25,943 bases of DNA from a virus (Duplodnaviria; Heunggongvirae; Uroviricota; Caudoviricetes): the IMG/VR virus record IMGVR_UViG_3300049596_000323, positions 64,001 to 89,943 of that record; one strand, 5' to 3'. Shown piece by piece: positions 320-16,949 of the stretch; positions within the stretch are counted from its first letter, which is position 1, and the number at the start of each line of letters is the position of its first letter. The notes beneath the pieces were generated by a model that ran no database searches, was not told the origin of the DNA, and saw only the letters and a program-made list of their open reading frames with translations. Both the position numbers and the translations under genes were made by a program.

Positions 320-526
320 TTATTTCTTCAATCCGTACTTAATCCACTTGTACCAGAAACGTTCGTGAAGATAGTATTGAACAGGCTTGTAGATAAGCTC
401 AGCTACCCCAAAGGCAGCCCCCACCTTGATAGAATCACTGATCCACCACATTATTAGGAAACCTATTACGGTGCTGATTATTCTATAGCTAATAGTCTTA
501 GCTATGTGTCTCTTTACCAATGGCAT
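320..526 (-). CDS. DUF2061-family small membrane protein
   Basis: RHIAKTISYRIIST...KPVQYYLHERFWYK matches the DUF2061 pattern (RSxxKxxSxR ... YYxHERxW). ATG at 526 preferred over the track's TTG at 538, which lies inside the predicted -7 promoter box. Confidence 0.75.
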   Translation of the reverse strand: MPLVKRHIAKTISYRIISTVIGFLIMWWISDSIKVGAAFGVAELIYKPVQYYLHERFWYKWIKYGLKK

Positions 527-535
527 ATGTATGAG

Positions 536-567
536 CAAAACTATGTAAAAGATTTGATATAACCAAA
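536..567 (-). promoter_or_regulatory. Bacteroidota primary-sigma-type promoter (TTTG-N20-TAGTTTTG) for the DUF2061 gene
   Basis: Minus strand reads TTTG (567-564), 20-nt spacer, TAGTTTTG (543-536): exact match to the TTTG-N19-21-TAnnTTTG consensus. Confidence 0.6.
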
Positions 568-573
568 TCTTTT
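547..573. terminator. 10-bp hairpin flanked by A/T tracts downstream of DUF6165 gene
   Basis: AAAAGATTTG-ATATAAC-CAAATCTTTT perfect inverted repeat immediately after the 575 stop codon. Confidence 0.5.
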
Positions 574-574
574 T

Positions 575-943
575 TTAGTAAGGGTTGTATGATTTCTCCT
601 CTACAAACTCAGAGAAGTACTTGATATTAATTTCTTTTTTAATATGTGCTCTTTTATCATTCAATTTGTACACTGACCTAGCCAGATCAACAAATTCTGG
701 GCCAAAACTACCAGCTCTTTCAAAGTCTCTGAGCAAGTCTTCCACATCCCAAAGAGCTTTGTTTGTCTTAAGTAGATCATCTACTAGTGGATCGTGTAGA
801 ATTTCAGGGTCAATCACTGTATTTAAGTAGTTTTTCTCAACAAAAACGTTCTTAAGTTTGTCTTTGTCTGTAATGTTCAAAGCCTTGATGGAAAGGATGG
901 TCCATTTGTCCACAACTTCCCCAATACTTACTTCTATTTGCAT
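575..943 (-). CDS. DUF6165-family protein
   Basis: MQIEVSIGEVVDKWTILSIK...NKALWDVED...FVDLARSVYKLNDKRAHIKKEIN...EEKSY matches the characteristic DUF6165 pattern (GExxDKxTIL / LWxxED / LARxVYxxNDxR / EEKSY). Confidence 0.8.
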   Translation of the reverse strand: MQIEVSIGEVVDKWTILSIKALNITDKDKLKNVFVEKNYLNTVIDPEILHDPLVDDLLKTNKALWDVEDLLRDFERAGSFGPEFVDLARSVYKLNDKRAHIKKEINIKYFSEFVEEKSYNPY

Positions 944-949
944 AAAAAT

Positions 950-984
950 TTTGTTGTTTATTTACAACAAATATACTAATTTTG
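950..984. promoter_or_regulatory. Back-to-back divergent Bacteroidota-type promoters with an 8-bp inverted repeat
   Basis: Plus: TTG (954-956)-N20-TAATTTTG (977-984). Minus: TATATTTG (975-968), with no clear -33 at canonical spacing. Inverted repeat TTTGTTGT (950-957)/ACAACAAA (964-971). Confidence 0.55.
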
Positions 985-1002
985 TTCAAAATAACCAGCA
1001 TT

Positions 1003-4000
1003 ATGCCAAATAGTTATACTTTTTACAAACCTGAGATTAAGAAATACTTTGAACATCATGTTCCTACACATAAAAAGATATTAGATGTTGGTCCTGGACA
1101 GGGTACTTATGCTAAGCTTTTAGAAGATATTGGTTATGATATAGATGCTGTTGAAGCTTGGGCCCCTTACATTGAAGAATTCAAACTGAAAGATTGGTAC
1201 GGAACAGTACACAATGCAGACATCCGTGAGTTTGACTGGTCAGAATATGACTACATCATCCTAGGAGATATACTAGAACATCTTACAGCTGAAGAAGGTC
1301 AGAAGCTTATTACAGATATAACAGATGCAGGCAAAGAATGTTTAGTGGCTGTACCATATATGATGGCTCAAGATGGTGAAGAGTATGGTAATACATACGA
1401 AACCCATCTCCAGGAAGACCTAACTCACAGGGTAATGAAGACTAGATACCCCCAGCTAGTTGAACTTTACAGTAATCATTTGTATGGGTATTATACGAAT
1501 AAGCATATAAAAGCTGAAAAAGCGTACGTTTTATATGCAAATGCATCTTATGTTCCTACCGTTAAAGCTTGTGTAGCTTCTATAAGAAGATATAGCGAGC
1601 TTCCCATCTACGTATATTTATTAGATACTATTGCAGATATTCCTGGTGCTACAACAATTATGTGGAAGTCTAATCTACCAAAGCTTTCTATCAACAAATA
1701 CATTGATAGAAGTGATAAGAATGTTTATAGACTGTTGATAGAACGTCCAATGATTGTTAAAGATGCTCTATTAAACTGTGCTCATACAGTAGCTTATATA
1801 GACTCTGATAGTGTAGCCACAGAATATGTTGATAGCATCTTTGATATGTATCCTAAAATGAACTATCCCTATTTTGTAGAGGGTATTTATGACTATCTAC
1901 ACATCAATGGTAGAGGTGGGGCTGATACTAGAGAAGATATGTCTACAACATTAGAAGCACCAGCATGTGAATTGTTTGGTGTCAATCAATATGTTAGACA
2001 GAGATATAGACAAACAGGTTATTTTGTAGCCAACCATTACTGCTTTGATTTCTTAGATGAGTGGTACTGGATGTGTACTCATCCTAAAGTGATGGCTAAC
2101 CATGAGTGGTATGCTCCATACCATGAAGAAACAATAGCTAACGTGTTATTGTGGAAGTGGGGAGTGTTAGATGGCCTACCTTACATCTACACCAATGCTA
2201 GCCTAGATAGAATAGAAGACATCTACGATAAGCTTGAGTGGGGGAAGCACCACGGAAGCTGGTCAAGATTACCAGATAATAAACATAAGTTATTATTCTT
2301 ACATGGAGAGAAAGATCCAAAGGTGATGAATAAGATGATACAAACTCTAGAGAGTGCAGAGAAACAACTAAGTGTATTGTTCTTAGCTCCTCACTTATCT
2401 ACAGGTGGTATGCCTGGTTTCCTCCTAAAAAGAGTGCAAGAACTACAACATTTCGTACGAATTTATGTAGTGGAGTACTCTGACTTCAGTCCTGTGTATG
2501 TTGTACAGAAGAATGAAATCAAAAAGCTATTGCCTGAAAACAGGATGTTTACACTAGGAGAAAACAAGATGGAGCTCATTGACATCATCAAAAAGAATAG
2601 CATTGATGTTGTACATGTAGAAGAAATGTTAGAAGGGTTTGAGAGTTTTAATCAAATAAGCCCTCAGTTATTAGATGCATTGTATGCTCCTGATAGAACC
2701 TGGAGAATAGTTGAGACATGTCATAACGTTTGGTTTAATCCTGACGAACTTAAGAAGTATGAACCAGAAGCTTATGCTTTCTGTACACCATATCATTATA
2801 AGACATTTGCTAACATGAAGGCTTATAAAGATGTAATTGAATTCCCTATAGAAGATAAGAGACCAAGTATTGTACATAAAGTGGATGCTAAAGATGAGTT
2901 AGGATTTAATCTGAACAGACCTAATGTTGTAAACGTAGGACTGTGGACTCCAGGAAAGAATCAGAAAGAAGGAATAGAGATAGCTAGAAAATATCCTAGT
3001 ATGGACTTCCATTTTGTAGGTAATCAAGCCCCCAACTTTAAAGACTACTGGGAACCGTTGATGGAAAACTTACCAAAGAATGTAAAGATATGGGGAGAGA
3101 GAAATGATGTAGATATATTCTTAAAAGCTGCAGACATATTCATGTTTAACAGCACATGGGAATGTAATCCTCTTGTACTTAGAGAAGCGATCAGCTATGC
3201 ACTTCCTGTAGTAGCTAGAAATCTTCCTCAGTATGAAGATATGTTTACTAGATACATCCTACCTATAGATAGTGATTTAGATGAAGTGAATGAAAAATAT
3301 CCTGTTGGTGTTGTTTTTCATGACATACCAGATAACAGATTTGCACAAAATCATTTACACTTGTATAACAAAACACTTGATATACCCATTGTTCCTAGAA
3401 AAAAGAAGAAAACAAAGGTGAATATATCTTTGTTATTTGTAGAGAGTCCCACCTTAGAAATTACAGGAAACAGTGATAGTAACTTCTTAATCAAATTCTT
3501 TGATGAGAAAGGGGTTTGCCATTATGAAAATACAATTACTAGCAACCGTTGGGTTAAGTTAAATAGACAATGGTTTACCAAGTGGACAGCTATGGTATGG
3601 GAAGATGGAGAACTCATCTTTGAAGAAACGTTAAACTATGAAGGTAAGCGTGTATACATCTGTATAGATAGTCAATCATTAGGTGATACTATTGCCTGGA
3701 TACCGTATTGCAATGAATTCAGAAAGAAACACAACTGTCATGTTGTAGTGAGCACATATAAGAATTTCTTGTTTGAGAAAGCGTATCCAGAGCTTGAGTT
3801 TATCACTCCAGGAAGTGTAGTGGGTAATATTCATGGTCAGTACATTGTTGGCTGGAGATACGGTAAAGATAAAGAACCTGTGTTGTGTAACACTATTCCT
3901 TTACAGAAAGCAGCTACTAACATACTAGGATTAGAATGGAAAGAGATTAGACCTAGATTTGCTTATGAACCAGTTAAATTTAGTGGTAAAGATACATTTG

Positions 4001-4479
4001 TAACTATTGCTACAAACAGTACATCAGGATGTAAGTTCTGGACCAAGCAAGGTTGGCAGGCTTTGATTAACTATCTAGTTGATCATGGATACAAGGTGTA
4101 CAATGTATCTAAAGAAAAAAATCCATTTGATAACTGTACACAGATAGAAGATACTTCTATGGATAACACTATCAATATGATCTGGAATAGTAAGTTCTTT
4201 ATAGGATTAAGCTCAGGACTGAGCTGGTTAGCTTGGATGATGGGTAAGCAAACTGTAATGATTAGTAACTTTACAGAAGCAGATCATGAGTTTCAATCTA
4301 ATTGTTTAAGAATTACAGATACAAACTTATGTCATGGTTGTTGGAACAATCCTAACTTTAAGTTTGACAAAGGTGATTGGGATTGGTGTCCTGTACATAA
4401 AGGAACTGACAGACAATTTGAATGTCATAAAGGTATATCTGCAGAAACAGTAATTAATAAAATAAAACACTTACTATGA
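1003..4479 (+). CDS. Four-domain glycan-modifying enzyme: SAM methyltransferase + GT-A-like glycosyltransferase + GT4 (GT-B) + Aah/TibC-type autotransporter O-heptosyltransferase domain
   Basis: ILDVGPGQG and LGDILEHL (class I MTase, ~1003-1490); YIDSD DxD at 1801-1809; GT4 EX7E motif ECNPLVLRE at 3160-3186; SLGDTIAWIPY (Asp 3685-3687), GLSSGLSWLAW and CHGC...WCP...QFEC four-Cys motif (4330-4425) as in TibC/Aah. ATG at 1003 preferred over TTG at 982. Confidence 0.85.
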   Translation: MPNSYTFYKPEIKKYFEHHVPTHKKILDVGPGQGTYAKLLEDIGYDIDAVEAWAPYIEEFKLKDWYGTVHNADIREFDWSEYDYIILGDILEHLTAEEGQKLITDITDAGKECLVAVPYMMAQDGEEYGNTYETHLQEDLTHRVMKTRYPQLVELYSNHLYGYYTNKHIKAEKAYVLYANASYVPTVKACVASIRRYSELPIYVYLLDTIADIPGATTIMWKSNLPKLSINKYIDRSDKNVYRLLIERPMIVKDALLNCAHTVAYIDSDSVATEYVDSIFDMYPKMNYPYFVEGIYDYLHINGRGGADTREDMSTTLEAPACELFGVNQYVRQRYRQTGYFVANHYCFDFLDEWYWMCTHPKVMANHEWYAPYHEETIANVLLWKWGVLDGLPYIYTNASLDRIEDIYDKLEWGKHHGSWSRLPDNKHKLLFLHGEKDPKVMNKMIQTLESAEKQLSVLFLAPHLSTGGMPGFLLKRVQELQHFVRIYVVEYSDFSPVYVVQKNEIKKLLPENRMFTLGENKMELIDIIKKNSIDVVHVEEMLEGFESFNQISPQLLDALYAPDRTWRIVETCHNVWFNPDELKKYEPEAYAFCTPYHYKTFANMKAYKDVIEFPIEDKRPSIVHKVDAKDELGFNLNRPNVVNVGLWTPGKNQKEGIEIARKYPSMDFHFVGNQAPNFKDYWEPLMENLPKNVKIWGERNDVDIFLKAADIFMFNSTWECNPLVLREAISYALPVVARNLPQYEDMFTRYILPIDSDLDEVNEKYPVGVVFHDIPDNRFAQNHLHLYNKTLDIPIVPRKKKKTKVNISLLFVESPTLEITGNSDSNFLIKFFDEKGVCHYENTITSNRWVKLNRQWFTKWTAMVWEDGELIFEETLNYEGKRVYICIDSQSLGDTIAWIPYCNEFRKKHNCHVVVSTYKNFLFEKAYPELEFITPGSVVGNIHGQYIVGWRYGKDKEPVLCNTIPLQKAATNILGLEWKEIRPRFAYEPVKFSGKDTFVTIATNSTSGCKFWTKQGWQALINYLVDHGYKVYNVSKEKNPFDNCTQIEDTSMDNTINMIWNSKFFIGLSSGLSWLAWMMGKQTVMISNFTEADHEFQSNCLRITDTNLCHGCWNNPNFKFDKGDWDWCPVHKGTDRQFECHKGISAETVINKIKHLL

Positions 4480-4913
4480 TAATAGTATTATTTGGTCAAC
4501 CTGCATCAGGTAAAACAACCCTTGCTAAAAAATTTATAGCAGAGGGATTTCATCACATAGATGGTGATGAATTAAGAGATATGTTTAAGAATAAAGACTA
4601 CAGTAGAGAAGGTAGGATTAAGAACTTAAACAGAGCCAGTGATATAGCACACTATTTAAATAAAGCTAAAAACTATAACATAGTGTTATCACTAGTGTAT
4701 CCTTATGAAGAAGCTAGAGAACATCTTAATAAACTAACTAGAGATGTCAAATGGATATATCTCATCTATGAAGAAGATAGAGGTAGAGATGACTTTAAAG
4801 TGAAAGACTTTGAAGTTCCTCACATGGATAATGTAGATTTAATTATTAACACTTCTAACACTTCTATTGAAGACAGTTTAGATAAAATCAAGCGTATATG
4901 CAGAATATTTTAG
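4476..4913 (+). CDS. cysC: Adenylyl-sulfate (APS) kinase, compact form
   Basis: P-loop GQPASGKTT, IDGDELR, DYSREGRIKN, SLVYPY..AR, FEVP..VDLIINT..SIE: all CysC hallmarks. ATGA overlap with the upstream gene. Confidence 0.8.
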   Translation: MIIVLFGQPASGKTTLAKKFIAEGFHHIDGDELRDMFKNKDYSREGRIKNLNRASDIAHYLNKAKNYNIVLSLVYPYEEAREHLNKLTRDVKWIYLIYEEDRGRDDFKVKDFEVPHMDNVDLIINTSNTSIEDSLDKIKRICRIF

Positions 4914-5284
4914 CTGAGGGAAACCGTAAGACGGATGGGTATGCAATGTTCATAGGAAGATGGCAACCATGGCACGCTGGTCACAGATGGTTAATTGATC
5001 AACAATTGAACCAGGGAAAGAAGGTGTTGCTATGTGTAAGAGATGTTAAAGAGGATGAAAAGAATCCATGGTCTGCGTATCAAATCATGATGAACTTAGC
5101 AGAAGCATTAAATGATTTAATTGAAGAAGGTAAGGTGAGACTTATAATTATCCCTGATATTGAGTCTATAAACTTTGGAAGAGGGGTGGGTTATGATGTC
5201 GTTGAACATGTACCACCACAAGAGATACATGATATATCTGCTACACAAATTAGAGAACAAATGAAAAAAGAAGGTAAACTATGA
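4898..5284 (+). CDS. HIGH-motif (cytidylyltransferase-like) nucleotidyltransferase
   Basis: MFIGRWQPWHAGH (HxGH at 4973-4984) and C-terminal ISATQIR; start overlaps the cysC stop by 16 nt. Confidence 0.8.
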   Translation: MQNILAEGNRKTDGYAMFIGRWQPWHAGHRWLIDQQLNQGKKVLLCVRDVKEDEKNPWSAYQIMMNLAEALNDLIEEGKVRLIIIPDIESINFGRGVGYDVVEHVPPQEIHDISATQIREQMKKEGKL

Positions 5285-6147
5285 ATATAATATTTCAAAT
5301 TAATGGTGGTATAGGCAAGGTGATTGCCTCCACAGCTGTGTGTGCTTCAATAAAAACTAAGTACCCTGATTGTAAACTGATTGTTGTCTCTGGTTATCCA
5401 GATGTATTTTTAGGTAATCCTAATGTGGATAGAGCTTATGGCTTTGGTCAACAAGCTTATTTCTATAAGGAGTACATTGAGAATCAAGAGATTATATTGT
5501 TTGCACATGATCCTTATCTAGAAACAAAGCACATCAAACAAGAAGAACATCTTATTGAAACTTGGTGTAAGCTATATGACTTACCTGTAACTAAAACTGT
5601 TGGAGAATTATTTCTTACAAAAAGAGAAATAGATTTCTTTAGTAAGAAGTTCATATCTGATAAACCTATTTTGCTACTACAAACAAATGGTGGGACTGAA
5701 TCTGATGTTAAATACTCATGGGCTAGAGATATTCCTAGTTATGTGGTGGAGAATGTTATACATGAATTTAAAGAACAGTATAATATTGTTCACATAAGAA
5801 GAGAAGATCAAATAAATTATGAAGGTACATTTCCTGTAACTGATACATTCAGAGCACTTCTTGTACTTATAAGTATAAGTGATAAAAGATTAATGATGGA
5901 TAGCTTTGGTCAACATGCTGCAGCTGCTTTGAATAAACCATCCACTGTACTATGGGTTGTAAATGTTCCTAATGTATTTGGATATGATATTCATACAAAC
6001 ATTACAGCTAATCCAGAAACAAGTTCCTCTGAACTAAGAAACTCTTATTTGAACAAATATAATATATCAGGTGAGCTTATAGAGTTTCCTTACAATAATG
6101 AGTCTGAAATGTTTAATATAAACAATGTAATTAAATCTTTAAAATAA
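5281..6147 (+). CDS. GT9-like (GT-B fold) glycosyltransferase
   Basis: N-terminal IIFQINGGIGKVIAST..ASIKTKYPDCKLIV and C-terminal LMMDSFGQHAAAALNKPSTVLW resemble GT9 heptosyltransferase motifs (xGD...; IGxDSGxxHxAAAxxxPxxxLF). ATGA overlap. Confidence 0.65.
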   Translation: MNIIFQINGGIGKVIASTAVCASIKTKYPDCKLIVVSGYPDVFLGNPNVDRAYGFGQQAYFYKEYIENQEIILFAHDPYLETKHIKQEEHLIETWCKLYDLPVTKTVGELFLTKREIDFFSKKFISDKPILLLQTNGGTESDVKYSWARDIPSYVVENVIHEFKEQYNIVHIRREDQINYEGTFPVTDTFRALLVLISISDKRLMMDSFGQHAAAALNKPSTVLWVVNVPNVFGYDIHTNITANPETSSSELRNSYLNKYNISGELIEFPYNNESEMFNINNVIKSLK

Positions 6148-6968
6148 TGGAAAAAATATTCTATCAAAGTTCTTTACCTAGGTCAGGATCTACATTGTTA
6201 CAAAACATTCTTGCACAGAACCCTGATATATATGCTACACCTACGTCTGGTGTACTTGAATTAATATTTGGAGCACGTGCTAATTACACTAACTCTACTG
6301 AGTTTAAAGCTCAAGATGCTGAACTTATGAAAAAAGGATGGCAAGCATTTGCTAAATCTGGTATGGATGCTTTCTACAATGCTATTACAGATAAGAAATA
6401 TGTTATAGATAAAAGCAGAGGTTGGGGCATACACTATGATTTCTTACAGTTTGTACACAATGAAGAACCAAAAATCATTTGTATGGTGAGAGACTTACGT
6501 GATGTATTTGCATCTATGGAAGGTAACTTTAGAAAACATCCAGAGAAGCAATCTGATATTTTAGATTGGGCTAAAGGACAAGGAACCACTGTACCTAAGC
6601 GTATAGACATATGGGCATCACAACCTCCTGTAGGACTTGCTCTTGAAAGACTTAGTGAGATATTTAGAACAGGAATTAATAACAAAATGTTATTTGTAAA
6701 GTTTGAAGACTTATGTTTATATCCAGATACTACAATGATTAAGATATATGAATATCTAGGATTAACATATTATCAACATGACTTTGATCACATTGAGCAA
6801 GTAACTAAAGAAGATGATGAAGTGTACGGTGCATTTGGTGATCACGTTATTCGTACAAAACTTGAACCTGTAAGAAGTAAAGCCAAAGAGTTATTAGGTA
6901 AGGACGTAACAGATTGGATCTATACCAATTACAAATGGTTCTATGACACATTTAGATATAGTAAATAA
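6147..6968 (+). CDS. PAPS-dependent sulfotransferase (Sulfotransfer_3-like)
   Basis: 5'-PSB loop SLPRSGSTLLQNIL, IDKSRGW, 3'-PB motif MVRDLRDVFASM, VKFEDL..PDTTMIKIYEYLGL. TAATG overlap with the upstream gene. Confidence 0.85.
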   Translation: MEKIFYQSSLPRSGSTLLQNILAQNPDIYATPTSGVLELIFGARANYTNSTEFKAQDAELMKKGWQAFAKSGMDAFYNAITDKKYVIDKSRGWGIHYDFLQFVHNEEPKIICMVRDLRDVFASMEGNFRKHPEKQSDILDWAKGQGTTVPKRIDIWASQPPVGLALERLSEIFRTGINNKMLFVKFEDLCLYPDTTMIKIYEYLGLTYYQHDFDHIEQVTKEDDEVYGAFGDHVIRTKLEPVRSKAKELLGKDVTDWIYTNYKWFYDTFRYSK

Positions 6969-6974
6969 TAAAAC

Positions 6975-7005
6975 AAAAAAGCCCAGAATTAACTGGGCTT
7001 TTTTT
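6975..7005. terminator. Bidirectional rho-independent terminator
   Basis: AAAAAA-GCCCAG-AATTAA-CTGGGC-TTTTTTT between convergent genes (stops at 6968 and 7028). Confidence 0.9.
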
Positions 7006-7027
7006 ATTACTTCACCTTAAATTAATA

Positions 7028-7372
7028 TTACAATACATTAAGGTTATTGCTAACTTCTTTGAACTCCACTACAGATGTTCCTAATTTAGCTGCAACAATT
7101 TGAAACAACTCTTCATCGTTTGTACCCCAGTTAGCTACTTCTGCAGCAGTTAACACAAGTTGTGTACGTTGAGGAGCTCTCTGTAAATAATCTACATCAT
7201 TTACATTTTTGATGTTGCCATAAACAACTACAAACTCATGTTTTTCATTTCCTGGAATATAGTTTACACCAATCACTCCTAAGTGATCAAATGATGCAAC
7301 TGTTGCAGAACTGAATGGGTTCTCATCTTTTTCAGAGAAAGATGCACTTGGACTAATTTTAGCTACTAACAT
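7028..7372 (-). CDS. Hypothetical protein, probably tail-fibre associated
   Basis: Clean 114-aa ORF with A-rich leader, last gene of the minus-strand structural unit, directly after the S74-containing fibre; C-terminal WGTNDEELFQIVAAKLG. Function inferred from position only. Confidence 0.6.
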   Translation of the reverse strand: MLVAKISPSASFSEKDENPFSSATVASFDHLGVIGVNYIPGNEKHEFVVVYGNIKNVNDVDYLQRAPQRTQLVLTAAEVANWGTNDEELFQIVAAKLGTSVVEFKEVSNNLNVL

Positions 7373-7401
7373 AACTTTATTTTTTATTTTTGTTTTTTAA
7401 A

Positions 7402-10400: not shown

Positions 10401-13400
10401 TGGTACCTGATGTACCATTAATACCTGATGTACCAGCAGTGCCAGAAGAACCGCTAGTTCCTGTAGTTCCAGAAGTACCATTTGATCCATTAACACCAGA
10501 AGTGCCAGAGGTACCAGTTGTACCTGATGTACCGTTTATTCCACTAGTTCCACTTGTTCCTGTTGTGCCAGATGTACCGTTTATACCAGATGTGCCTGAG
10601 GTTCCAGTTGTTCCAGAAGTTCCTCCTGTACCATTAGTTCCAGATGTACCACCTGTACCATTAGTACCTGAAGAGCCTGAAGAGCCTGATGTTCCAGTAG
10701 TACCTGAAGTACCGCCAGTTCCATTAGTAGCTGAAGTTCCTGAAGTTGCTGACGTACCACTAGTTCCATTACTACCACTAACACCAGAAGATCCTGATGT
10801 TCCTGTGGTACCTGATGTACCACTTGTTGCACTAGTTCCACTAGTACCTGTTGTACCACTGGTTCCAGTTGTGCCACTTGTTCCACTTGTACCACCAGTT
10901 CCATTAGTACCACTAGAACCTGAAGTTCCACTTGTACCAGAGGTACCTCCAGTTCCATTAGTTCCTGAACTTCCTGATGTACCAGTGGTACCAGAAGTTG
11001 CAGATGAACCAGATGTACCAGAAGAGCCAGATGTACCTGTTGTACCAGAGCTTCCACTTGTACCAGTTGAACCTGAAGTACCAGTGGTACCGCTTGTTCC
11101 TGATGTACCAGAAGTTCCTGAAGATCCATCAGTTCCACTTGTTCCAGTGGTACCTGATGTTCCTGAAGGAGCATTGAATGTTGTTTGAGCGTATGAGTAG
11201 TTACTCGTACCCTCTGTATAAAAAGTTATATTATGATTAGCACCACCACCAGTAAATTCAACATAAATTTGACAATAAAGTCTATCTGTTGCATTTAATG
11301 TGGTTTGTGGCAAAAATAAATCTGTAAAAAATTCTTTAATAACACCATTGCTCATTGATTCTGTATCAATGTTTGTAGTTCCTAAAAGAGTAGAAACACC
11401 ACCAGTTGTATACTTGTATAATTCTACATCTACTGCAACATTTCTATTTGTATCAATTGAAAGGTGTGTTACGAAAGCCCAAAGACCTGAAGGTATATTT
11501 GTTATATTTGGTACACCACTATCAGTTGCAAAAGTTGCAATTAATGTTCTTGTGTCTGCCGCTATATTTGTAACTACAGTTTGTTCTGCACCACCTGTAG
11601 CAGTTGATGAAAATTGTTTATAAGTAGGAGTACCAAAAGCCGTATTTGTATTTAATGATTGATTTAGATAGTATACAAGTCCTCCAGATATACCATTTAT
11701 ACCTGATGTACCAGCCGTACCTGAAGTACCACTTGTTCCACTTGTTCCGCTAGATCCACTAGTTCCTGTTGTACCAGACGTACCACTAGTTCCTGTAGAA
11801 CCACTTGTACCAGTTGTTCCACTTGTACCTGAGCTTCCTGAAGTTCCAGTTGTACCGCTAGATCCTGATGTACCACTAGTTCCACCAGTTCCATTAGTTC
11901 CACTAGAACCACTTGTTCCTGTTGTACCTGAAGTGCCACCAGTTCCATTAGTTCCACTAGATCCAGAACTACCACTTGTACCAGATGATCCACTTGTACC
12001 AGTAGTTCCACTAGAGCCTGAAGTACCTGTAGATCCACTAGTTCCACTAGTTCCACCAGTACCATTAGTACCGCTAGTTCCACTAGTACCACTTGTACCA
12101 GTTGTTCCACTAGTACCACTTGTGCCATCAATAGCACTTGTACCAGAAGTTCCACTTGTACCTGAGGTACCACTTGTTCCGTCTACACCAGATGTTCCAC
12201 TTGTGCCAGACGTACCTGTTGACCCACTAGTACCACTAGTACCAGTTGTGCCAGAAGTTCCGTTAGTACCATCTATACCAGTTGTACCTGAGGTACCTGA
12301 AGTACCACCACTACCTGACGTACCAGTGGTACCAGATGTTCCACTTGTTCCATCTATTGCAGAAGTTCCTGAGGTACCAGTAGTACCAGCAGTTCCTGAA
12401 GAGCCGCTTGTTCCACTAGTTCCAGATGTACCTGTTGAACCAGATGTTCCACTAGTTGCAGAAGAACCTGAGGTTCCACTTGTTCCTGTAGTTCCACTAG
12501 ATCCACTTGTACCATCAATTCCTGATGTGCCACTTGTTCCACTTGATCCACTAGTACCACCTGTACCATTGGTAGCAGATGTTCCACTTGAACCAGATGT
12601 ACCGCTTGTACCTGTTGTGCCACTAGTTCCTGAGGTTCCAGTTGTACCAGATGTTCCATCAATAGCTGATGTTCCACTTGTACCAGCTGTTCCACTAGTT
12701 CCAGTTGTGCCACTTGTACCGCTAGTTCCATCAATTGCAGATGTACCACTAGAACCACTTGTTCCAGTCGTGCCACTTGTACCACTGGTTCCTGTTGTTC
12801 CAGCAGTTCCAGAAGAACCACTAGTCCCAGAAGATCCTGAAGTTCCAGTAGTGCCAGATGTTCCAGAAGAACCATCTCCTCCAGAAGCACCGTCTAAGTT
12901 AACTATCCAGCTTGTATATGTACCACTACCAACTGTTCTAGTTGGAGTGCCAAAAATTAATCCACCAGTAGCTGGGTTATAAGATACCACTTCACATTCT
13001 TGGAAGTTGTTTATATCATAAGCTATTACAATAGATTGAGCTACTGTATATGCAAGTTGTGTTCCTACAACAATGGCTCCATTACTACCTAATGTAAACG
13101 ATGTAGTAGAAGTTGTTGCAAATTGGTCACCTGTTTCTCCAGAAGTACCTGATGAACCAGATGTACCATTACTACCATCAGCACCACTGGTTCCACTAGT
13201 TCCACTAGTTCCAGATGTGCCATCTATTGCTGATGTTCCAGATGAGCCTGAAGACCCACTAGTTCCTGAAGTACCGTCTGTTGCACTTGTTCCACTTGAA
13301 CCTGATGTTCCACTTGTACCAGATGTACCTCCACTACCACCAGCACCATCAATACCTGAACTACCACTAGTTCCAGATGTACCAGCAGTACCTGACGTGC

Positions 13401-13647
13401 CTGAAGTACCTGCACTTCCAGATGTACCATCTTCACCAGCAGAACCAGAGGCAATTACTTCCCAAAGGTTGTAACTACCACTACCTACAGCTTTAGTTGG
13501 TGTAAAAACCAACTCTCCTGTAGCAGGATTGTAAGAAACAACCTGACCAAAAATATAGTCAGTACTATCTGCTATTAGCTGGATAAATTGTCCAGTGATA
13601 AAAGATAGACCTGTTTGAGTGGTTATTGTTATGTTAGAATAAGCCAT
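7402..13647 (-). CDS. Giant trimeric tail/virion fibre: G-T-S triplet stalks, internal beta modules, Cys-rich beta-roll head, C-terminal Peptidase_S74 intramolecular chaperone
   Basis: Three Gly-X-Y blocks; ~14-15-aa repeats of type NxASGxYSxIGGGxxN (YadA-head-like); TSDARLK...GFIAQQVKDVVPESV...KLIPILTKGVQIL is the S74 chaperone signature. Confidence 0.85.
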   Translation of the reverse strand: MAYSNITITTQTGLSFITGQFIQLIADSTDYIFGQVVSYNPATGELVFTPTKAVGSGSYNLWEVIASGSAGEDGTSGSAGTSGTSGTAGTSGTSGSSGIDGAGGSGGTSGTSGTSGSSGTSATDGTSGTSGSSGSSGTSAIDGTSGTSGTSGTSGADGSNGTSGSSGTSGETGDQFATTSTTSFTLGSNGAIVVGTQLAYTVAQSIVIAYDINNFQECEVVSYNPATGGLIFGTPTRTVGSGTYTSWIVNLDGASGGDGSSGTSGTTGTSGSSGTSGSSGTAGTTGTSGTSGTTGTSGSSGTSAIDGTSGTSGTTGTSGTAGTSGTSAIDGTSGTTGTSGTSGTTGTSGTSGSSGTSATNGTGGTSGSSGTSGTSGIDGTSGSSGTTGTSGTSGSSATSGTSGSTGTSGTSGTSGSSGTAGTTGTSGTSAIDGTSGTSGTTGTSGSGGTSGTSGTTGIDGTNGTSGTTGTSGTSGSTGTSGTSGTSGVDGTSGTSGTSGTSGTSAIDGTSGTSGTTGTSGTSGTSGTNGTGGTSGTSGSTGTSGSSGTTGTSGSSGTSGSSGSSGTNGTGGTSGTTGTSGSSGTNGTGGTSGTSGSSGTTGTSGSSGTSGTTGTSGSTGTSGTSGTTGTSGSSGTSGTSGTSGTAGTSGINGISGGLVYYLNQSLNTNTAFGTPTYKQFSSTATGGAEQTVVTNIAADTRTLIATFATDSGVPNITNIPSGLWAFVTHLSIDTNRNVAVDVELYKYTTGGVSTLLGTTNIDTESMSNGVIKEFFTDLFLPQTTLNATDRLYCQIYVEFTGGGANHNITFYTEGTSNYSYAQTTFNAPSGTSGTTGTSGTDGSSGTSGTSGTSGTTGTSGSTGTSGSSGTTGTSGSSGTSGSSATSGTTGTSGSSGTNGTGGTSGTSGTSGSSGTNGTGGTSGTSGTTGTSGTTGTSGTSATSGTSGTTGTSGSSGVSGSNGTSGTSATSGTSATNGTGGTSGTTGTSGSSGSSGTNGTGGTSGTNGTGGTSGTTGTSGTSGINGTSGTTGTSGTSGINGTSGTTGTSGTSGVNGSNGTSGTTGTSGSSGTAGTSGINGTSGTTGTSGTTGTSGTSGSSGINGTSGTAGTTGTSGTSGAAGSPGAPGTNGTSGSSGSSGVNVGSSAVIIAGTGTASSVRCGASNTASGNCSSVLGGAGNTGDFAYSFIGGGCQNHASGNFHGTIVNGQGNCTNANYNFIGNGLNNVASGTQYNTVVNGASNTASGDYAFIGNGFGNSAAGQCSFVGSGTFNGANGTSGVVVGGQNNSANGSFSAVLGGCGNTAMGAYSGVFGCGLSNSLSCSFMANCFVQPNLSNAMIGGCAVCAGPLGELIAYTASSGGGVMVAGSAPGSIQGNGFSNTASGYCSSALSGTTNASSSNGSVITGGGFNSNSGMYSFIGGGFFNNVISASCSVISGGNNNCVCSSSSTISGGVFNKILSSTNCSTISGGACNIICTNSAGNLIAGGKSNTVSSYASCNVIGGGDINMIGTGSTHGVIAGGTFHNIGNYSGNNVISGGFMNNIGSNGTSGTISGGSMNTISGYVTGATITGGQGNFATANYSTVSGCGLMNSLACTHMVNDLAITSFAPYVGMGCSISFDGFGKLCLTAGGGGGSSIMVLGMGAGSTERCGNFNTTGGTNSGALSGFFNNAGGSSSVIAGGEANNNSAACSFIGGGFNNFTASSYPFNNIGMTIGGGVNNKVCVSYGTIGGGCCNTIGASGSSGFSTIGGGKLNNANGDYSTVSGGYSNSASAYFTFIGGGRSNGAFAEGAAVASGFYNNAMSCRSFVGGGEMNMASACSSAIIGGTMNNAGGNCSVIVGGSGNTTSSAYYASFPSYGFIGGGQTNCNYGGWGFIGGGSNNTIAGGNMFSSSMKSGILAGYQNYVSSEMSGILAGQSNNAMAAASAVTGGCFNMSMGIGSVVSGCQIMSTDSFVNHASCFKAANLNPGGAICANATGMIVLNTSDARLKCCIQPVGYQLCDVSKLVPSFYEFNSANKANGEGKQVGFIAQQVKDVVPESVKMTFSGYYSFDSSKLIPILTKGVQILISCVDSLTLQLEELRNK
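10235..11170 (-). repeat. Gly-X-Y (mainly GTS/GTT/GSS/GTN) coding repeat, block 3 of fibre 1 (boundaries approximate)
   Basis: 9-nt periodic degenerate repeat; Gly (occasionally Ala) at every third residue. Confidence 0.9.
11690..12890 (-). repeat. Gly-X-Y coding repeat, block 2 of fibre 1 (~400 aa, boundaries approximate)
   Basis: Register [18 protein letters not shown] ... AID GTS is held throughout the part I checked. Confidence 0.9.
13135..13440 (-). repeat. Gly-X-Y coding repeat, block 1 of fibre 1 (boundaries approximate)
   Basis: GTS triplets between the two N-terminal beta modules. Confidence 0.9.
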
Positions 13648-13673
13648 TTATATTGATTTTATATTTTATAATT

Positions 13674-16600
13674 TTAACAAGGTACACAACTACCTGCTTG
13701 AGTTAACAATGTTGAACCACCACCTGCAGAAGTAAATGGTCTAGTATTGGTTCCATCAGAAACATAATAGGTTCCTGCACTCAATGATGTAGCATTAGCT
13801 GCATTTAAAGCACCACATCCACAAAGAGTTGCTGTACCTGTGTATGCATATGTTGGAAGGCTAGTAGCTGTACCTGCACAAGCCATTGAACTAATAGAAT
13901 CTACATATAATGTTGGAGAACTTGGAGTTGTACATGAACCACTCACTTGAACTAATCCATATATGTTTACAGCATACCAATTAGTTCCATCAGAATAATA
14001 TCCTGAACTAACTGAATTTGTAAGTGCTGTATCATAATATAAAAATGTGACAGTTGCTGTAATAGTAGTACCAAATTCATAATAAATTGGAACTAATAAT
14101 GAAGGATTATCTGCATTACCACATGCTACAATAGGCCCTACATTACTTGGATAACTAGGATCAGCAAACGCTAAATTTATAGTATTATAGACAGGTGCTG
14201 TTGTAGTTGTTGTTGTTGTAGTTATACAACTTTCTATACTTGTTATTATACCAGATTCAGCAATTCCAAATGGATCACCATCAAGACCTATATAATATGT
14301 GCCTGGAGGATTTGAAAATGTAAAAGGATCTGTTAAATATTGATCATCATACAATTGTGTTCCTACTTGAATAGGTAATGATTCTACATATAATGGAGCA
14401 AGAATACCACCACTACAAGGACTAAAAGGACCAAAAAGACTTGGGCTAACACCACTAGCCGTAACTTCAATACCATTTTGATTTAAAGGAAAAGATATTG
14501 TATTAGAACTTGTACCATATAATAATGTAGAGCTACCAGAGGTTCCTGACGTTCCACTGGTACCAGAAGTACCACTAGTTCCACTTGTGCCACTAGTGCC
14601 TGATGTACCTGAGGTTCCACTAGTACCATCTATTGCACTTGTTCCAGATGTGCCAGATGAACCAGCTGTACCACTTGAGCCTGATGTACCGTCTATACCA
14701 GACGTTCCTGTTGTTCCAGAAGACCCACTAGTACCTGATGTTCCGTCTACACCTGTAGTTCCAGATGTTCCATCAGTTCCACTTGTACCTGATGTGCCAG
14801 TAGTTCCTGAAGAACCAGAAGTTCCTGAGGTGCCACTAGTTGCTGAGGTACCACTTGTTCCTGTTGTACCACTAGTACCAGATGAACCTGAAGTGCCAGA
14901 AGTTCCGTCAATTCCAGATGTTCCATCTGTACCACTTGTACCATCAGTACCACTAGTTCCGTCAACTCCACTTGTTCCTGAAGTTCCATCTATGCCAGAA
15001 GTACCGTCAGTACCAGATGTTCCATCAGTACCTGATGTTCCGTCTGTACCAGAAGTACCACTTGAACCAGAAGTTCCTGAAGTGCCATCAATACCACTAG
15101 AGCCTGATGTACCACTTGTGCCTGAAGTACCAGTGCTTCCACTTGTACCACTTGTTCCGTTTGTACCATCAATGCCAGAAGTTCCAGAAGTTCCACTAGA
15201 ACCACTAGTTCCAGTTGTTCCACTAGATCCTGATGTACCGCTTGTTCCAGAAGTTCCAGTTGTACCTGATGAGCCATCATTACCAGAAGTACCAGATGTG
15301 CCTGTAGTTCCAGAAGTGCCAGAAGTGCCATCTATTCCAGATGTACCACTTGTACCTGAGCTACCATCACCACCTGATGCACCATCAAGGTTTACTATCC
15401 AACTTGTATATGTGCCTGAACCCACTGTTCTAAAAGGGGCACCAAAACTTAATTCACCTGTTGATGGATTATAAGCTGTAACCTCACACTCTTGGAAGTT
15501 ATTAGCGTCATAAACCACAATTATTGATTGAGCCACTGAGTATGCTAAACCTGTAGCAACTGTTAATGTACCAGAGTTACCTAATGTAAAGCTATCAGTA
15601 GATGTAGTTCTATATTTATCACCTTGTGCTCCAGAAGTACCACTTGTACCACTGGTGCCATCTATTCCAGATGACCCTGAAGTTCCTGCAGATCCTGATG
15701 TTCCATGGCTACCGTCTGTACCACTTGTTCCACTAGTTCCAGAAGTACCAGTAGTACCACTAGATCCTGATTCACCACTAGTACCACTTGTTCCAGTAGT
15801 TCCAGAAGTTCCGTTACTACCATCACTTCCTGAGGTTCCTGAACTACCACTTGTGCCTGTAGTACCACTAGTACCACTTGTTCCATCAACTCCAGAAGAC
15901 CCACTAGTTCCAGAAGATCCACTTGTTGCAGATGTACCGCTTGTACCATGTGTTCCACTGGTTCCAGATGTACCAGTCGTACCTGAAGTTCCTGATTCAC
16001 CACTAGTTCCACTAGTACCGTCAGACCCTGATGTACCAGATGTTCCATCAACACCACTTGTTCCAGTGGTACCAGATGATCCAGATGTACCTGTTGTTCC
16101 TGAAGTACCGCTTGTACCTGTAGATCCACTTGTACCTGATGTACCACTTGTTGCAGATGTTCCAGACGTACCACTTGTTCCATCTACTCCACTTGTACCA
16201 GAGGTACCATCTTCACCTGAAGATCCACTTGTTCCAGCAGTTCCACTAGTTGCAGAAGTTCCACTAGTTCCATCTACACCTGAAGTGCCACTGGTTCCTG
16301 TAGTGCCTGATGTTCCTGATGTACCATCTATACCTGAAGTACCACTGGTTCCAGAGGTTCCACTAGTTGCAGATGAACCACTAGTTCCACTTGTACCATC
16401 AGTTCCACTTGTACCATCAATACCAGATGTGCCTGAGCTTCCAGCAGTTCCTGAAGAACCTGCTGATCCATTTACACCATTTGTTCCATTAATACCTGAC
16501 GTACCAGAGGTACCACGTGTTCCTGATGTACCACTAGTACCTGTAGTTCCACTTGTTCCAGTTGTTCCACTTGATCCTGAGACACCAGAAGTACCAGAAG

Positions 16601-16949
16601 TACCACGTGTACCAGACGTACCATCTACACCACTTGTACCTGAAGTACCAGTTAAACCACTAGTACCTGATGTACCACGTGTTCCTGAGGTTCCAGAAAC
16701 CCCACTTGTACCAGAGGTTCCATTGATACCATTTGTACCATCAATACCAGAGGTTCCACTAGTACCTGAAGTACCAGCTGAACCACTACCACCTCCTCCA
16801 TTACCAATAGCTTCATCAATTTTTTGTAAAGCTGTCTGAATGGAATCATTAGTGTTGATACCTGTATAAACAAGATTAGCACCCTCGTAAAATACGCAGG
16901 TGCTGTTAAGTATGACTGGGCAAGGAGTTGCAGAACATGTAACGTTCAT
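13674..16949 (-). CDS. Second G-T-S triplet fibre protein with Cys-containing N-terminal anchor and three Cys-bracketed C-terminal modules
   Basis: N-term [19 protein letters not shown]...[12 protein letters not shown]; two Gly-X-Y blocks split by a module shared with fibre 1; C-terminal modules joined by TTTTTTT and TTPSSP linkers. Confidence 0.8.
14530..15375 (-). repeat. Gly-X-Y coding repeat, block B of fibre 2 (boundaries approximate)
   Basis: GTS/GTD/GID triplets, 9-nt degenerate periodicity. Confidence 0.9.
15620..16800 (-). repeat. Gly-X-Y coding repeat, block A of fibre 2 (boundaries approximate)
   Basis: GTS triplets with interspersed GTR, GES, GVD, GTH. Confidence 0.9.

Follow-up and report, generated by a model that had tools for sequence, protein, structure and literature searches.

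Two separable enzyme cassettes at a phage tail fiber locus follow different fiber domains

In a viral record of about 90 kb (IMG/VR IMGVR_UViG_3300049596_000323), a run of overlapping enzyme genes faces two very long fiber genes, which raises the question of what these enzymes modify. A sequence-only reading had answered with one pathway that builds a methylated and sulfated O-glycan on the Gly-Thr-Ser arrays of the fibers. We followed this up in the window, that is, the whole stretch of 25,943 nt analyzed here, and in related loci. The "operon" is in fact two separable cassettes, A and B, with different fiber-domain links.

Layout of the locus and its relatives

All five enzyme genes are present on the + strand, each overlapping the next (by 4, 16, 4 and 1 nt in turn), and converge on two collagen-like fiber genes on the - strand, as the sequence-only reading described. 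The enzyme genes do not adjoin the fibers directly, since a gene for a 114-aa protein and a two-way terminator hairpin intervene. For the first enzyme gene, the ATG at 1003 is a likelier start than the TTG at 982. The features are as follows.

575-943, - strand: DUF6165 gene, transcribed away from the enzyme operon (Pfam DUF6165, E 2e-10)
1003-4479 (982-4479 from the TTG), + strand: P0001, cassette A enzyme with four domains
1027-1326, + strand: SAM methyltransferase domain of P0001, residues 16-115 (Pfam Methyltransf_23/11)
1492-2391, + strand: GT-A-like region of P0001, residues 171-470 (invariant D-x-D, GT8-like atlas neighbors)
about 2419-3291, + strand: GT4 domain of P0001 (Pfam Glycos_transf_1, E 1e-12)
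3481-4470, + strand: predicted TibC/Aah-type O-heptosyltransferase domain of P0001, residues 834-1163 (TIGR04414 hepto_Aah_TibC)
4476-4913, + strand: short APS-kinase-like P-loop kinase, 145 aa, cassette B accessory (Pfam APS_kinase)
4898-5284, + strand: P0003, 128-aa HxGH / ISxT nucleotidyltransferase (CTP_transf_like, 23.6 bits vs 21)
5281-6147, + strand: P0004, GT9-fold protein, core of cassette B (predicted model, fold search)
6147-6968, + strand: P0005, PAPS-type sulfotransferase, core of cassette B (Sulfotransfer_3, E 5e-17)
6975-7004, both strands: two-way terminator hairpin with a 12-bp stem and T runs on both strands, separating the converging enzyme and fiber operons
7028-7372, - strand: gene of the 114-aa protein, between enzyme genes and fiber genes
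7402-13647, - strand: fiber P0006, 2081 aa (Pfam Collagen; UspA1-head-like body; S74)
7531-7704, - strand: S74 intramolecular chaperone of P0006
7738-10170, - strand: UspA1/YadA-head-like 15-residue repeats of P0006, an 810-aa body
11503-13446 and 10153-11010, - strand: Ser/Thr collagen-like arrays of P0006 (Gly-X-Y runs)
13674-16949, - strand: fiber P0007, 1091 aa (Pfam Collagen)
15555-16796 and 14460-15272, - strand: Ser/Thr collagen-like arrays of P0007, followed by a Cys-rich C-terminal domain

Searches of Pfam, PHROG and NCBIfam gave zero matches for the 114-aa protein, whose homologs occupy the same location, between the fiber gene and cassette B, in three related loci (L110, L116 and L118). 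DUF6165 homologs adjoin the fusion gene in many loci, and a glycosyltransferase in cyanophage S-SRM01. Similarity of the operon DNA to known phages is limited to two short patches. The portal matches 140 phage records, most of them from crAss-like or Bacteroidota phages, with an identity of about 25-29% to the best matches listed and 25-27% to Crassvirales, and the sole match of the capsid protein is Leptolyngbya phage Lbo-JY46 (25%). The label "crAss-like" therefore holds only as a distant relationship, the nearest isolate being a Leptolyngbya phage.

Both fibers match Pfam Collagen (PF01391), P0006 with E values of about 1e-87 to 9e-87 and P0007 with about 1e-89 to 1e-88. Counted strictly, within runs of at least 8 triplets, they hold 741 and 651 Gly-X-Y residues, so that the roughly 1500 residues of Gly-Thr-Ser triplets first reported become 1,392 residues of collagen type. 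Ser and Thr fill 86% of the X/Y positions in P0006 and 82% in P0007; Pro occurs twice in the 928 X/Y positions of the two fibers together, and the helix-stabilizing Pro/Hyp or charged residues of collagen were not found to characterize these arrays. The description as giant Ser/Thr fibers fits the arrays but leaves out the 810-aa body and the S74 chaperone of P0006. This body matches the UspA1 head (3pr7/3ntn, E 2e-11), and like the heads of the trimeric autotransporter adhesins UspA1 and YadA it is built of a Gly/Asn/Ser-rich repeat of about 15 residues, here with a recurrent aromatic-Ser pair. Unlike these adhesins, P0006 has no membrane anchor, ends in the S74 chaperone and is fused to collagen-like stalks.

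The fusion enzyme and the Ser/Thr collagen-like arrays

The methyltransferase and GT4 calls in P0001 are backed by Pfam matches, as are those of the APS kinase, nucleotidyltransferase and sulfotransferase downstream. The second glycosyltransferase proposed in the fusion, at residues 171-470, is only a lead: its invariant D-x-D and GT8-like neighbors hint at a GT-A-like enzyme, but the call is not firm. The C-terminal domain, read from the outset as an Aah/TibC heptosyltransferase, scores 246.4 bits against the TIGR04414 equivalog cut-off of 200 (NCBIfam) and matches TibC (4rap) with E 2e-45. D902, the equivalent of the TibC catalytic base Asp-110, is invariant in all 58 phage homologs, as are the iron-finger residues C1117, C1120, C1136 and C1148 and the equivalents of TibC T226, K230 and W305. 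Judged by its sequence, the domain is a member of the BAHT (TibC/Aah-type) protein O-heptosyltransferase family.

P0001 shares with TibC, Aah and BimC (TIGR04414; PDB 4RAP, 4RB4; PMC4358343) a GT9-type GT-B domain that retains the catalytic Asp, the iron finger with its four Cys and all but one of the four sugar-binding residues, and it is likewise encoded beside a long, repetitive, Ser-rich surface fiber or adhesin, the putative target of hyper-glycosylation in the cytoplasm. Unlike them, it is phage-encoded and fused to GT4, GT-A-like and methyltransferase domains, and its partner is a collagen-like Gly-X-Y array rather than an autotransporter beta-helix, the window holding no autotransporter. 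The position of the sugar-binding Arg-286 of TibC is Thr in P0001 and in 51 of the 58 phage copies, which leaves room for a donor other than ADP-heptose; that of Pro-300 is Ser, as in Aah. The 90-kb record yielded no GmhA, PfkB-type heptose kinase or other gene of the ADP-heptose pathway. To our knowledge, the substrates described for BAHT enzymes are beta-helices rather than collagen.

The associations that link the fusion gene to the arrays are gene neighborhoods in metagenomic contigs, many of them fragmentary. Of the 39 loci whose flank extends for 6 kb or more, 31 have a convergent Ser/Thr collagen gene, at a distance of 0-5.7 kb downstream of the fusion gene. Among 55 dereplicated clusters, Ser/Thr collagen arrays occur in 38/44 with the fusion and in 0/11 without it (Fisher 1e-7, a test that overstates independence because relatives share ancestry). 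The pair is the sole thing held in common with unrelated backbones, including 321-kb phages, and it is also present in the isolated Microcystis phage Mel-JY01. The BAHT family, found 4 times among 50,697 phage records, is carried by 16 of 44 records chosen by a (GTS)5 DNA pattern alone, against 2 of 40 chosen by a head-repeat pattern. Of nine GTS-selected records that are near-complete, four lack a BAHT gene, and such arrays can therefore exist without it. Fusion locus L030 has no Ser/Thr-rich gene within reach, and L095/L107 are exceptional in that a stand-alone heptosyltransferase lies near a protein of 44-47% Ser/Thr.

The sulfotransferase cassette and the head-like repeats

P0005 scores 63 bits (PF13469 / PF00685), well over the gathering score of 27, and its 5'-PSB and 3'-PB motifs for PAPS (P11, R12, G14 and S15, with R115, D116, R118 and S123) are invariant in 32 homologs. 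Structure searches with its model (pLDDT 86.7) are dominated by sulfotransferase folds; the nearest are human TPST1/2 (E 2e-8, TM about 0.5-0.56), ahead of carbohydrate enzymes, whereas the best NCBIfam match is NoeE, a carbohydrate sulfotransferase. Matches to PDB sequences are all weak and comprise TPST1 (E 0.017) and one polyketide-synthase chain. With protein-tyrosine sulfotransferases as the nearest folds, the sulfated glycan of the initial proposal is only one option.

P0004 was placed by fold search alone: it has no Pfam match (PF01075 included), reaches only E 0.003-0.008 in NCBIfam, and its profile found nothing among PDB sequences. Its model (pLDDT 91.7) has WaaF (E 2e-12), GT9 3tov, WaaC and TibC as top Foldseek matches, in agreement with the earlier "GT9-like" label. 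In an hhalign alignment of only 15.6% probability, its invariant Lys-13 aligns with the BAHT/GT9 catalytic Asp and the GT9 donor-site motifs seem retained; by this alignment P0004 appears to have a Lys instead of the GT9 catalytic Asp. The P0004 gene lies immediately upstream of the sulfotransferase in 19 of 24 head-repeat-selected Sulfotransfer_3 records. A predicted complex of P0004 with P0005 scores 0.49 (best control 0.01), with at least 94% of contacts common to the runs and a partner pLDDT of at least 83. The mark applied was reached by 58/80 solved complexes and 2/110 mismatched pairs; at scores of 0.60 or lower, only 7 of the 80 solved complexes passed together with both passing mismatches, so that a pass in this range will be wrong more often than it is right, and we grade this interaction as weak.

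PAPS supply from within the operon, as first suggested, was found in part: an APS-kinase-like gene is there, but APS kinase occurs in 10 of 24 sulfotransferase-positive records and is therefore accessory, not core. Cyanophages S-SKS1 and S-SRM01 have no kinase or nucleotidyltransferase homolog adjoining their sulfotransferase. In the 145-aa protein the P-loop and DGD substrate motif are visible, Pfam APS_kinase (PF01583) scores 39.3 bits, where the gathering score is 21.1, and the closest solved relatives are APS kinases (2yvu, E 1.6e-6); against NCBIfam cut-offs of at least 127 it reaches 44 bits, in a match that spans residues 1-98 only. P0003 is closest to archaeal NMN adenylyltransferases (E 2e-8, N-terminal half only), and phrog_10255 is a fusion of a P0003-type nucleotidyltransferase domain with a kinase domain. 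With its 128 aa, P0003 could be a minimal ATP sulfurylase, but neither ATP sulfurylase (PF01747) nor CysD (PF01507) has a match anywhere in the 90-kb record, P0003 included. With no match to these, to GmhA or to the PfkB-type kinase in the record, the phage cannot be shown to encode either a full sulfate-activation pathway or one for ADP-heptose. As in the PAPS-dependent sulfation systems of rhizobia (NodPQ/NodH and NoeE) and of TPST1/2, a sulfotransferase with canonical PAPS-binding motifs, P0005, goes together with an APS-kinase-like protein of its own. Unlike in those systems, there is no canonical ATP sulfurylase, the partner is a GT9-fold protein and the cassette is tied to a phage fiber domain.

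This domain is the head-like repeat, present in 23/24 clusters with cassette B and 0/31 without it (1e-14, over the 55 dereplicated clusters and with kinship ignored). None of 19 whole records with cassette A only has a sulfotransferase or head repeats (positive control 5/5), and Sulfotransfer_3 is found in 24/40 head-repeat-selected vs 4/44 GTS-selected records (6e-7); records sampled only by substrate-type DNA pattern thus give the same split between A and B. As a query for related loci the head-repeat body retrieved near relatives only, and tblastn against the 50,697 phages gave no match, probably on account of the low-complexity filter; a degenerate DNA pattern was used instead. Cassette B is also seen in complete or near-complete phages that carry neither heptosyltransferase nor Ser/Thr collagen. 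One complete 63.7-kb phage shares with this genome only the head-repeat fiber, the 114-aa gene, and the GT9-fold, sulfotransferase, kinase and nucleotidyltransferase genes. Co-occurrence with Ser/Thr-repeat fibers, which the sequence-only reading expected of the whole operon, is therefore borne out for the heptosyltransferase half, from the enzyme and the fiber side, while the sulfation half occurs independently of such proteins. Since the sulfation genes follow head-like repeats, another domain, and occur in complete genomes without BAHT or Ser/Thr collagen, we reject a single pathway for a sulfated, methylated O-glycan on the arrays.

Possible roles on the virion and competing readings

We favor two independent kits with which the phage would modify its own tail fibers during assembly in the host cytoplasm, a reading that we hold to be probable though by no means secure. 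Its basis is genomic throughout: the enzyme identities, the conserved catalytic residues and the two associations between enzymes and fiber domains. From these we infer the fibers as acceptors, the identity of the sugar, the order of the steps and the placement of sulfate on a sugar or directly on the protein.

In cassette A, the TibC/Aah-type domain would add the first sugar, by homology a heptose from host ADP-heptose, to Ser/Thr hydroxyls of the Gly-Thr-Ser arrays of P0006 and P0007. The GT4 and GT-A-like domains joined to it may then lengthen the glycan and the methyltransferase cap it, and such a dense glycan could hydrate and stabilize a proline-free triple helix and shield the long stalk. 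In cassette B, the GT9-fold protein and the sulfotransferase would act on the head-like beta-roll repeats near the tip of P0006, so that sulfate ends up on the fiber. The APS kinase would convert host APS to PAPS where the host supplies none, and P0003, as an accessory, could make APS or an ADP-linked donor. A more specific form of this proposal, which we would sooner doubt than believe, has two orthogonal systems serve one fiber: BAHT glycosylation, required for the proline-free Ser/Thr collagen stalk to fold and stiffen, and a GT9-fold adaptor with a TPST-like sulfotransferase that uses phage-made PAPS to sulfate an adhesin-like tip.

Cassette B might instead place sulfate straight onto the fiber protein, at Tyr or Ser residues in the head-like repeats, with no sulfated sugar. 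The GT9-fold protein would then have lost glycosyltransfer and serve as substrate-binding partner of a TPST-like enzyme. The TPST-like folds and weak TPST1 sequence match of P0005 point this way, as do the invariant Lys of P0004, the adjacency of the two genes, the predicted complex and the aromatic-Ser pair that recurs in the P0006 repeat. We judge it unlikely, however: fold neighbors at such TM values do not fix the acceptor, NoeE argues for a carbohydrate, the low-probability alignment that places the Lys also seems to keep the donor-site motifs, and the complex itself is a weak prediction.

The enzymes could also remodel the host envelope (LPS core, capsule or exopolysaccharide), which would block superinfection or keep progeny from sticking to debris. 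Phage-encoded glycosyltransferases that modify the host envelope are well known, GT9 and GT4 enzymes normally make LPS and polysaccharides, the nearest folds of P0004 include WaaF and WaaC, and NoeE works on a lipo-oligosaccharide. This seems to us quite improbable, because the C-terminal domain of P0001 passes the equivalog cut-off of a family whose acceptors are proteins and not lipids, and because in both sampling directions each cassette follows one fiber domain type and not the backbone or host group. Nor were membrane segments or export signals apparent in the enzymes. A role in DNA modification was set aside, the key domain belonging to a protein-glycosylating family and both cassettes following fiber domains. 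Against the two-kit reading it can also be said that fiber regions recombine often and could gather hitch-hiking cargo; in aquatic phages they are known to form variable islands (PMC10202952). The enzymes would then act on small molecules, DNA or other virion proteins, and the fragmentary contigs and shared ancestry behind the Fisher tests leave room for this. Hitch-hiking fails, however, to predict the double dissociation, in which each enzyme set is tied to its own fiber domain and anti-correlated with the other, or the constant gene order and spacing across unrelated backbones; even the stand-alone heptosyltransferase of L095/L107 sits near a Ser/Thr-rich protein. We regard it as very improbable.

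Modification of the phage's own fibers has parallels. The collagen-like regions of Bacillus BclA and C. difficile BclA3 are glycosylated, which is thought to aid hydration, and BclA/BclA3 with SgtA likewise combine a Thr-rich collagen-like filament with a dedicated nearby enzyme (PMC8968730, PMC7157674). Unlike their Gly-Pro-Thr-like repeats, the arrays described here have almost no Pro, the glycosyltransferases are of other families and the filament is a virion fiber. Searches of the literature for BAHT enzymes of phages, for glycosylation of their collagen-like fibers and for sulfation of phage fibers returned no paper. In mycobacteriophages Che8, Corndog and Myrna, phage glycosyltransferases encoded near structural genes are said, in 2023 work by Freeman et al., to O-glycosylate the phage's own virion proteins. 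The targets in such phages are capsid and tail-tube extensions, and, unlike this locus, those systems are not known to have a BAHT enzyme, collagen-like substrate or sulfation.

If the two-kit reading is true, P0006 would be the first example of a sulfated virion protein in a phage, the arrays a new substrate class for the virulence-associated TibC/Aah autotransporter heptosyltransferase family, and their glycan a natural answer to the problem of a collagen helix without proline. Each cassette is compact and has its substrate next door, which makes the proposal directly testable. The range of bacteria open to a phage is set by its tail fibers. Were these densely coated with sugars and sulfate, the host range, particle stability and recognition by immune systems or grazers of many abundant aquatic phages would rest on chemistry invisible in their sequences, and with such kits viruses would be dressing their own particles in a way that is little known.

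Gene layout around the enzymes and fibres

The window covers the terminal 26 kb of an IMG/VR phage record (G000; 90 kb, ~78% complete). The sequence-only reading called this phage crAss-like, a label that holds only in a distant sense: the portal protein matched 140 phage records, mostly of crAss-like and Bacteroidota phages; the best matches listed are ~25-29% identical, and Leptolyngbya phage Lbo-JY46 is the nearest isolate by portal and by capsid protein alike. The relevant features are:

575-943, minus strand: DUF6165 gene, adjoining the fusion gene P0001
982/1003-6968, plus strand: five mutually overlapping enzyme genes, namely P0001 (cassette A) and the GT9-fold protein P0004 and sulfotransferase P0005 with accessory P0002 and P0003 (cassette B)
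6975-7004: two-way terminator hairpin, 12 bp, where the enzyme operon ends
7028-7372, minus strand: 114-aa gene without a family match
17090-22189 and 22191-25943, minus strand: giant genes (1699 aa and more than 1250 aa) with no Pfam match

The 114-aa gene, the fibre genes P0006 (2081 aa) and P0007 (1091 aa) and the two giant genes converge on the hairpin from the minus strand. In unrelated phages the 114-aa protein is kept, at 27-36% identity, between cassette B and a fibre gene with head repeats like those of P0006; a role in fibre assembly is conceivable, as is membership of that cassette. The DUF6165 gene was found again alongside these cassettes in many loci, and in cyanophage S-SRM01 it adjoins a glycosyltransferase and a sugar epimerase; given those neighbours, it may be an unrecognised additional part of phage glycosylation clusters. 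The 1699-aa protein is conserved beside the fibres in related loci and faintly similar to a protein of crAss-like phage cr108_1 (E 6e-7). Outside the window, a third collagen-like tail-fibre gene (620 aa; 5757-7619 of the record, minus strand; L002) belongs to the structural block at the opposite record end, distant from the enzyme cassettes. Plus-strand ORFs of 100-390 aa at 8597-16839, opposite the collagen arrays, are artefacts of the Gly-Thr-Ser codon repeats and not genes. The same opposite-strand effect may be the reason why arrays of Microcystis phage Mel-JY01 read as collagen opposite annotated genes (L008, 1-2300).

Domains of the enzymes and their candidate substrates

P0001 combines a class I methyltransferase domain, a GT4 domain and, between the two, a stretch of 300 residues in which a D-x-D is invariant. 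The nearest protein-atlas clusters of this stretch include GT8-like viral glycosyltransferases, which is a lead rather than proof that it is a glycosyltransferase. The C-terminal 330 residues reach 246 bits with NCBIfam TIGR04414 (autotransporter O-heptosyltransferases Aah/TibC; curated cut-off 200) and match TibC structures with an E-value of 2e-45. Among the functional residues defined in TibC (PMC4358343), 58 phage homologues all keep the catalytic Asp, the four Cys of the iron finger and three of the four residues that bind the sugar. The position of Arg-286 is occupied by Thr in 51 of the 58, and the stereoselectivity residue is the Ser seen in Aah.

P0002 is a short APS-kinase-like P-loop protein that scores over the Pfam threshold and under the NCBIfam cut-offs; among solved structures, APS kinases are its best relatives. 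P0003 (128 aa) has HxGH and ISxT motifs that are invariant, falls into a cluster made up of viral proteins only, and is nearest to archaeal NMN adenylyltransferases. Since one PHROG family fuses a P0003-type domain behind a P0002-type kinase domain, both probably serve a single pathway. P0004 has no Pfam match; its structure model (pLDDT 91.7) matches WaaF, WaaC and TibC, and a low-confidence profile alignment places an invariant Lys at the catalytic-Asp position of those GT9-type enzymes. In P0005, both PAPS-binding motifs are invariant. Its model is closest to human tyrosylprotein sulfotransferases, followed by the curacin sulfotransferase domain and heparan-sulfate enzymes, and its top NCBIfam match is NoeE, a carbohydrate enzyme.

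P0006 and P0007 are both collagen-like (Pfam Collagen, E ~1e-87), with 741 and 651 Gly-X-Y residues in runs of at least 8 triplets. Ser or Thr fills 86% and 82% of their X/Y positions, and their runs together hold 2 prolines. P0006 is a mosaic in which collagen stalks are followed by an 810-residue body of ~15-residue repeats, similar to the head of the trimeric adhesin UspA1 (E 2e-11), and then by an S74 self-cleaving chaperone domain.

Two cassettes, each with its own fibre domain

We retrieved 74 IMG/VR loci via the heptosyltransferase domain and 43 via the sulfotransferase, scored each for every enzyme and fibre feature, and dereplicated them into 55 clusters of at least 14 kb each. The evidence is homology and gene neighbourhood in metagenomic contigs, and locus and cluster counts ignore shared ancestry. 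Of the 39 loci with sufficient flank, 31 have a Ser/Thr collagen-like gene that converges on the fusion gene from 0 to 5.7 kb downstream. Across the 55 clusters, with shared ancestry not removed, Ser/Thr collagen arrays occur in 38/44 with the fusion versus 0/11 without it, and UspA1-like repeats in 23/24 with sulfation genes versus 0/31 without them. Among the exceptions, the fibre gene of L015 extends beyond the locus end, L095 and L107 carry a stand-alone heptosyltransferase and no collagen arrays, and L030 has nothing suitable as a substrate gene within reach of the fusion. L095 (14790-15872) and L107 (14795-15796) also encode a 334-361-aa protein with 44-47% Ser/Thr, a possible non-collagen substrate.

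Whole records separate in the same way. The 19 records that carry only the fusion, eight of which reach 90% completeness or more, gave neither a sulfotransferase nor head repeats (the head-repeat query recovered 5/5 positive controls). Conversely, no heptosyltransferase was found in 21 records with sulfation genes alone. One of these is a complete phage of 63.7 kb that has terminal repeats, and another is a relative of this genome at 91% completeness. Collagen matches exceed the Pfam cut-off in 3 of these 21, with ordinary composition in the 91%-complete relative and Ser/Thr-rich in the records of L088 and L099. The sequence-only reading had proposed one pathway placing a methylated and sulfated O-glycan on the Gly-Thr-Ser repeats. 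Its link to those repeats stands for the fusion; the sulfation genes follow the head repeats instead, and the single pathway is not supported.

To avoid picking records through enzymes alone, we also sampled from the fibre side with degenerate DNA patterns for five Gly-Thr-Ser triplets, (GTS)5, or one head-repeat unit.

Enzyme domains over cut-off in records selected by fibre pattern
(GTS)5, n=44: heptosyltransferase 16; Sulfotransfer_3 4
Head repeat, n=40: heptosyltransferase 2; Sulfotransfer_3 24

The two sets differ for both domains (Fisher, 4e-4 for heptosyltransferase and 6e-7 for Sulfotransfer_3, shared ancestry not removed). Heptosyltransferase was absent from 4 of 9 near-complete (GTS)5-selected records. 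The domain occurs in 4 of 50,697 deposited phage genomes, among them Mel-JY01, where Gly-Thr-Ser arrays lie a few kb from the fusion gene. Of the 24 sulfotransferase-positive head-repeat records, 19 have a GT9-fold gene immediately upstream of the sulfotransferase and only 10 have an APS kinase, so the GT9-fold/sulfotransferase pair is the core of cassette B, with kinase and nucleotidyltransferase as accessories. The complete 304-kb jumbo phage record of L322 (G119) has two separate pairs of adjacent GT9-fold and sulfotransferase genes, at ~180-182 kb and ~190-192 kb, and also an APS kinase.

Over 20 kb, the 63.7-kb phage has only the head-repeat fibre and the four cassette B enzymes in common with this genome; its sister loci L110, L116 and L118 additionally carry the 114-aa gene. 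What L025 (150-kb contig) and L066 (43 kb) have in common with this genome is limited to the fusion and a collagen fibre, and 321-kb contigs carry near-identical copies of the L025 fusion. That distant phages share only cassette and fibre indicates that each cassette travels between backbones with its own fibre domain type.

Proposed activities and alternatives

The most likely activity of cassette A is cytoplasmic O-glycosylation of the Ser/Thr collagen-like stalks. The TibC-type domain would attach an initial sugar, the GT4 and GT-A-like domains fused to it would lengthen the glycan, and the methyltransferase would provide a cap. A proline-free collagen helix is expected to be only marginally stable. 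In glycosylated Thr-rich bacterial collagens such as BclA, sugars are thought to give hydration (PMC8968730). On both grounds, helix stabilisation would be a reasonable role for the stalk glycans.

Cassette B most likely sulfates the adhesin-like tip. The acceptor could be a sugar attached by the GT9-fold protein or the fibre protein itself, with the GT9-fold partner as an adaptor. We lean slightly towards direct protein sulfation, given the Lys in place of the catalytic Asp in P0004, the TPST-like fold of P0005 and a weak complex prediction for the two (0.49 vs 0.01 for controls). The 90-kb record holds no ATP sulfurylase or ADP-heptose pathway genes. Donors would be host-supplied or, in the case of APS, possibly made by P0003.

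The enzymes might instead modify the host envelope, or their linkage to fibres might reflect hitch-hiking, fibre regions being recombination hot spots; neither possibility predicts the double dissociation of cassettes and fibre domains.

Virion glycosylation is already known for mycobacteriophages (PMC10527164), as are BAHT enzymes (the TibC/Aah family) from autotransporters (PMC4358343) and glycosylated collagen-like filaments from spores (PMC7157674). In our literature search, no publication turned up on phage BAHT enzymes, on glycosylation of collagen-like phage fibres or on phage-fibre-linked sulfation. The present analysis adds the pairing of GT9-fold/sulfotransferase genes with UspA1-like head repeats and the two-cassette split, each cassette with its own fibre domain, seen whether records are sampled through the enzymes or through the fibres.
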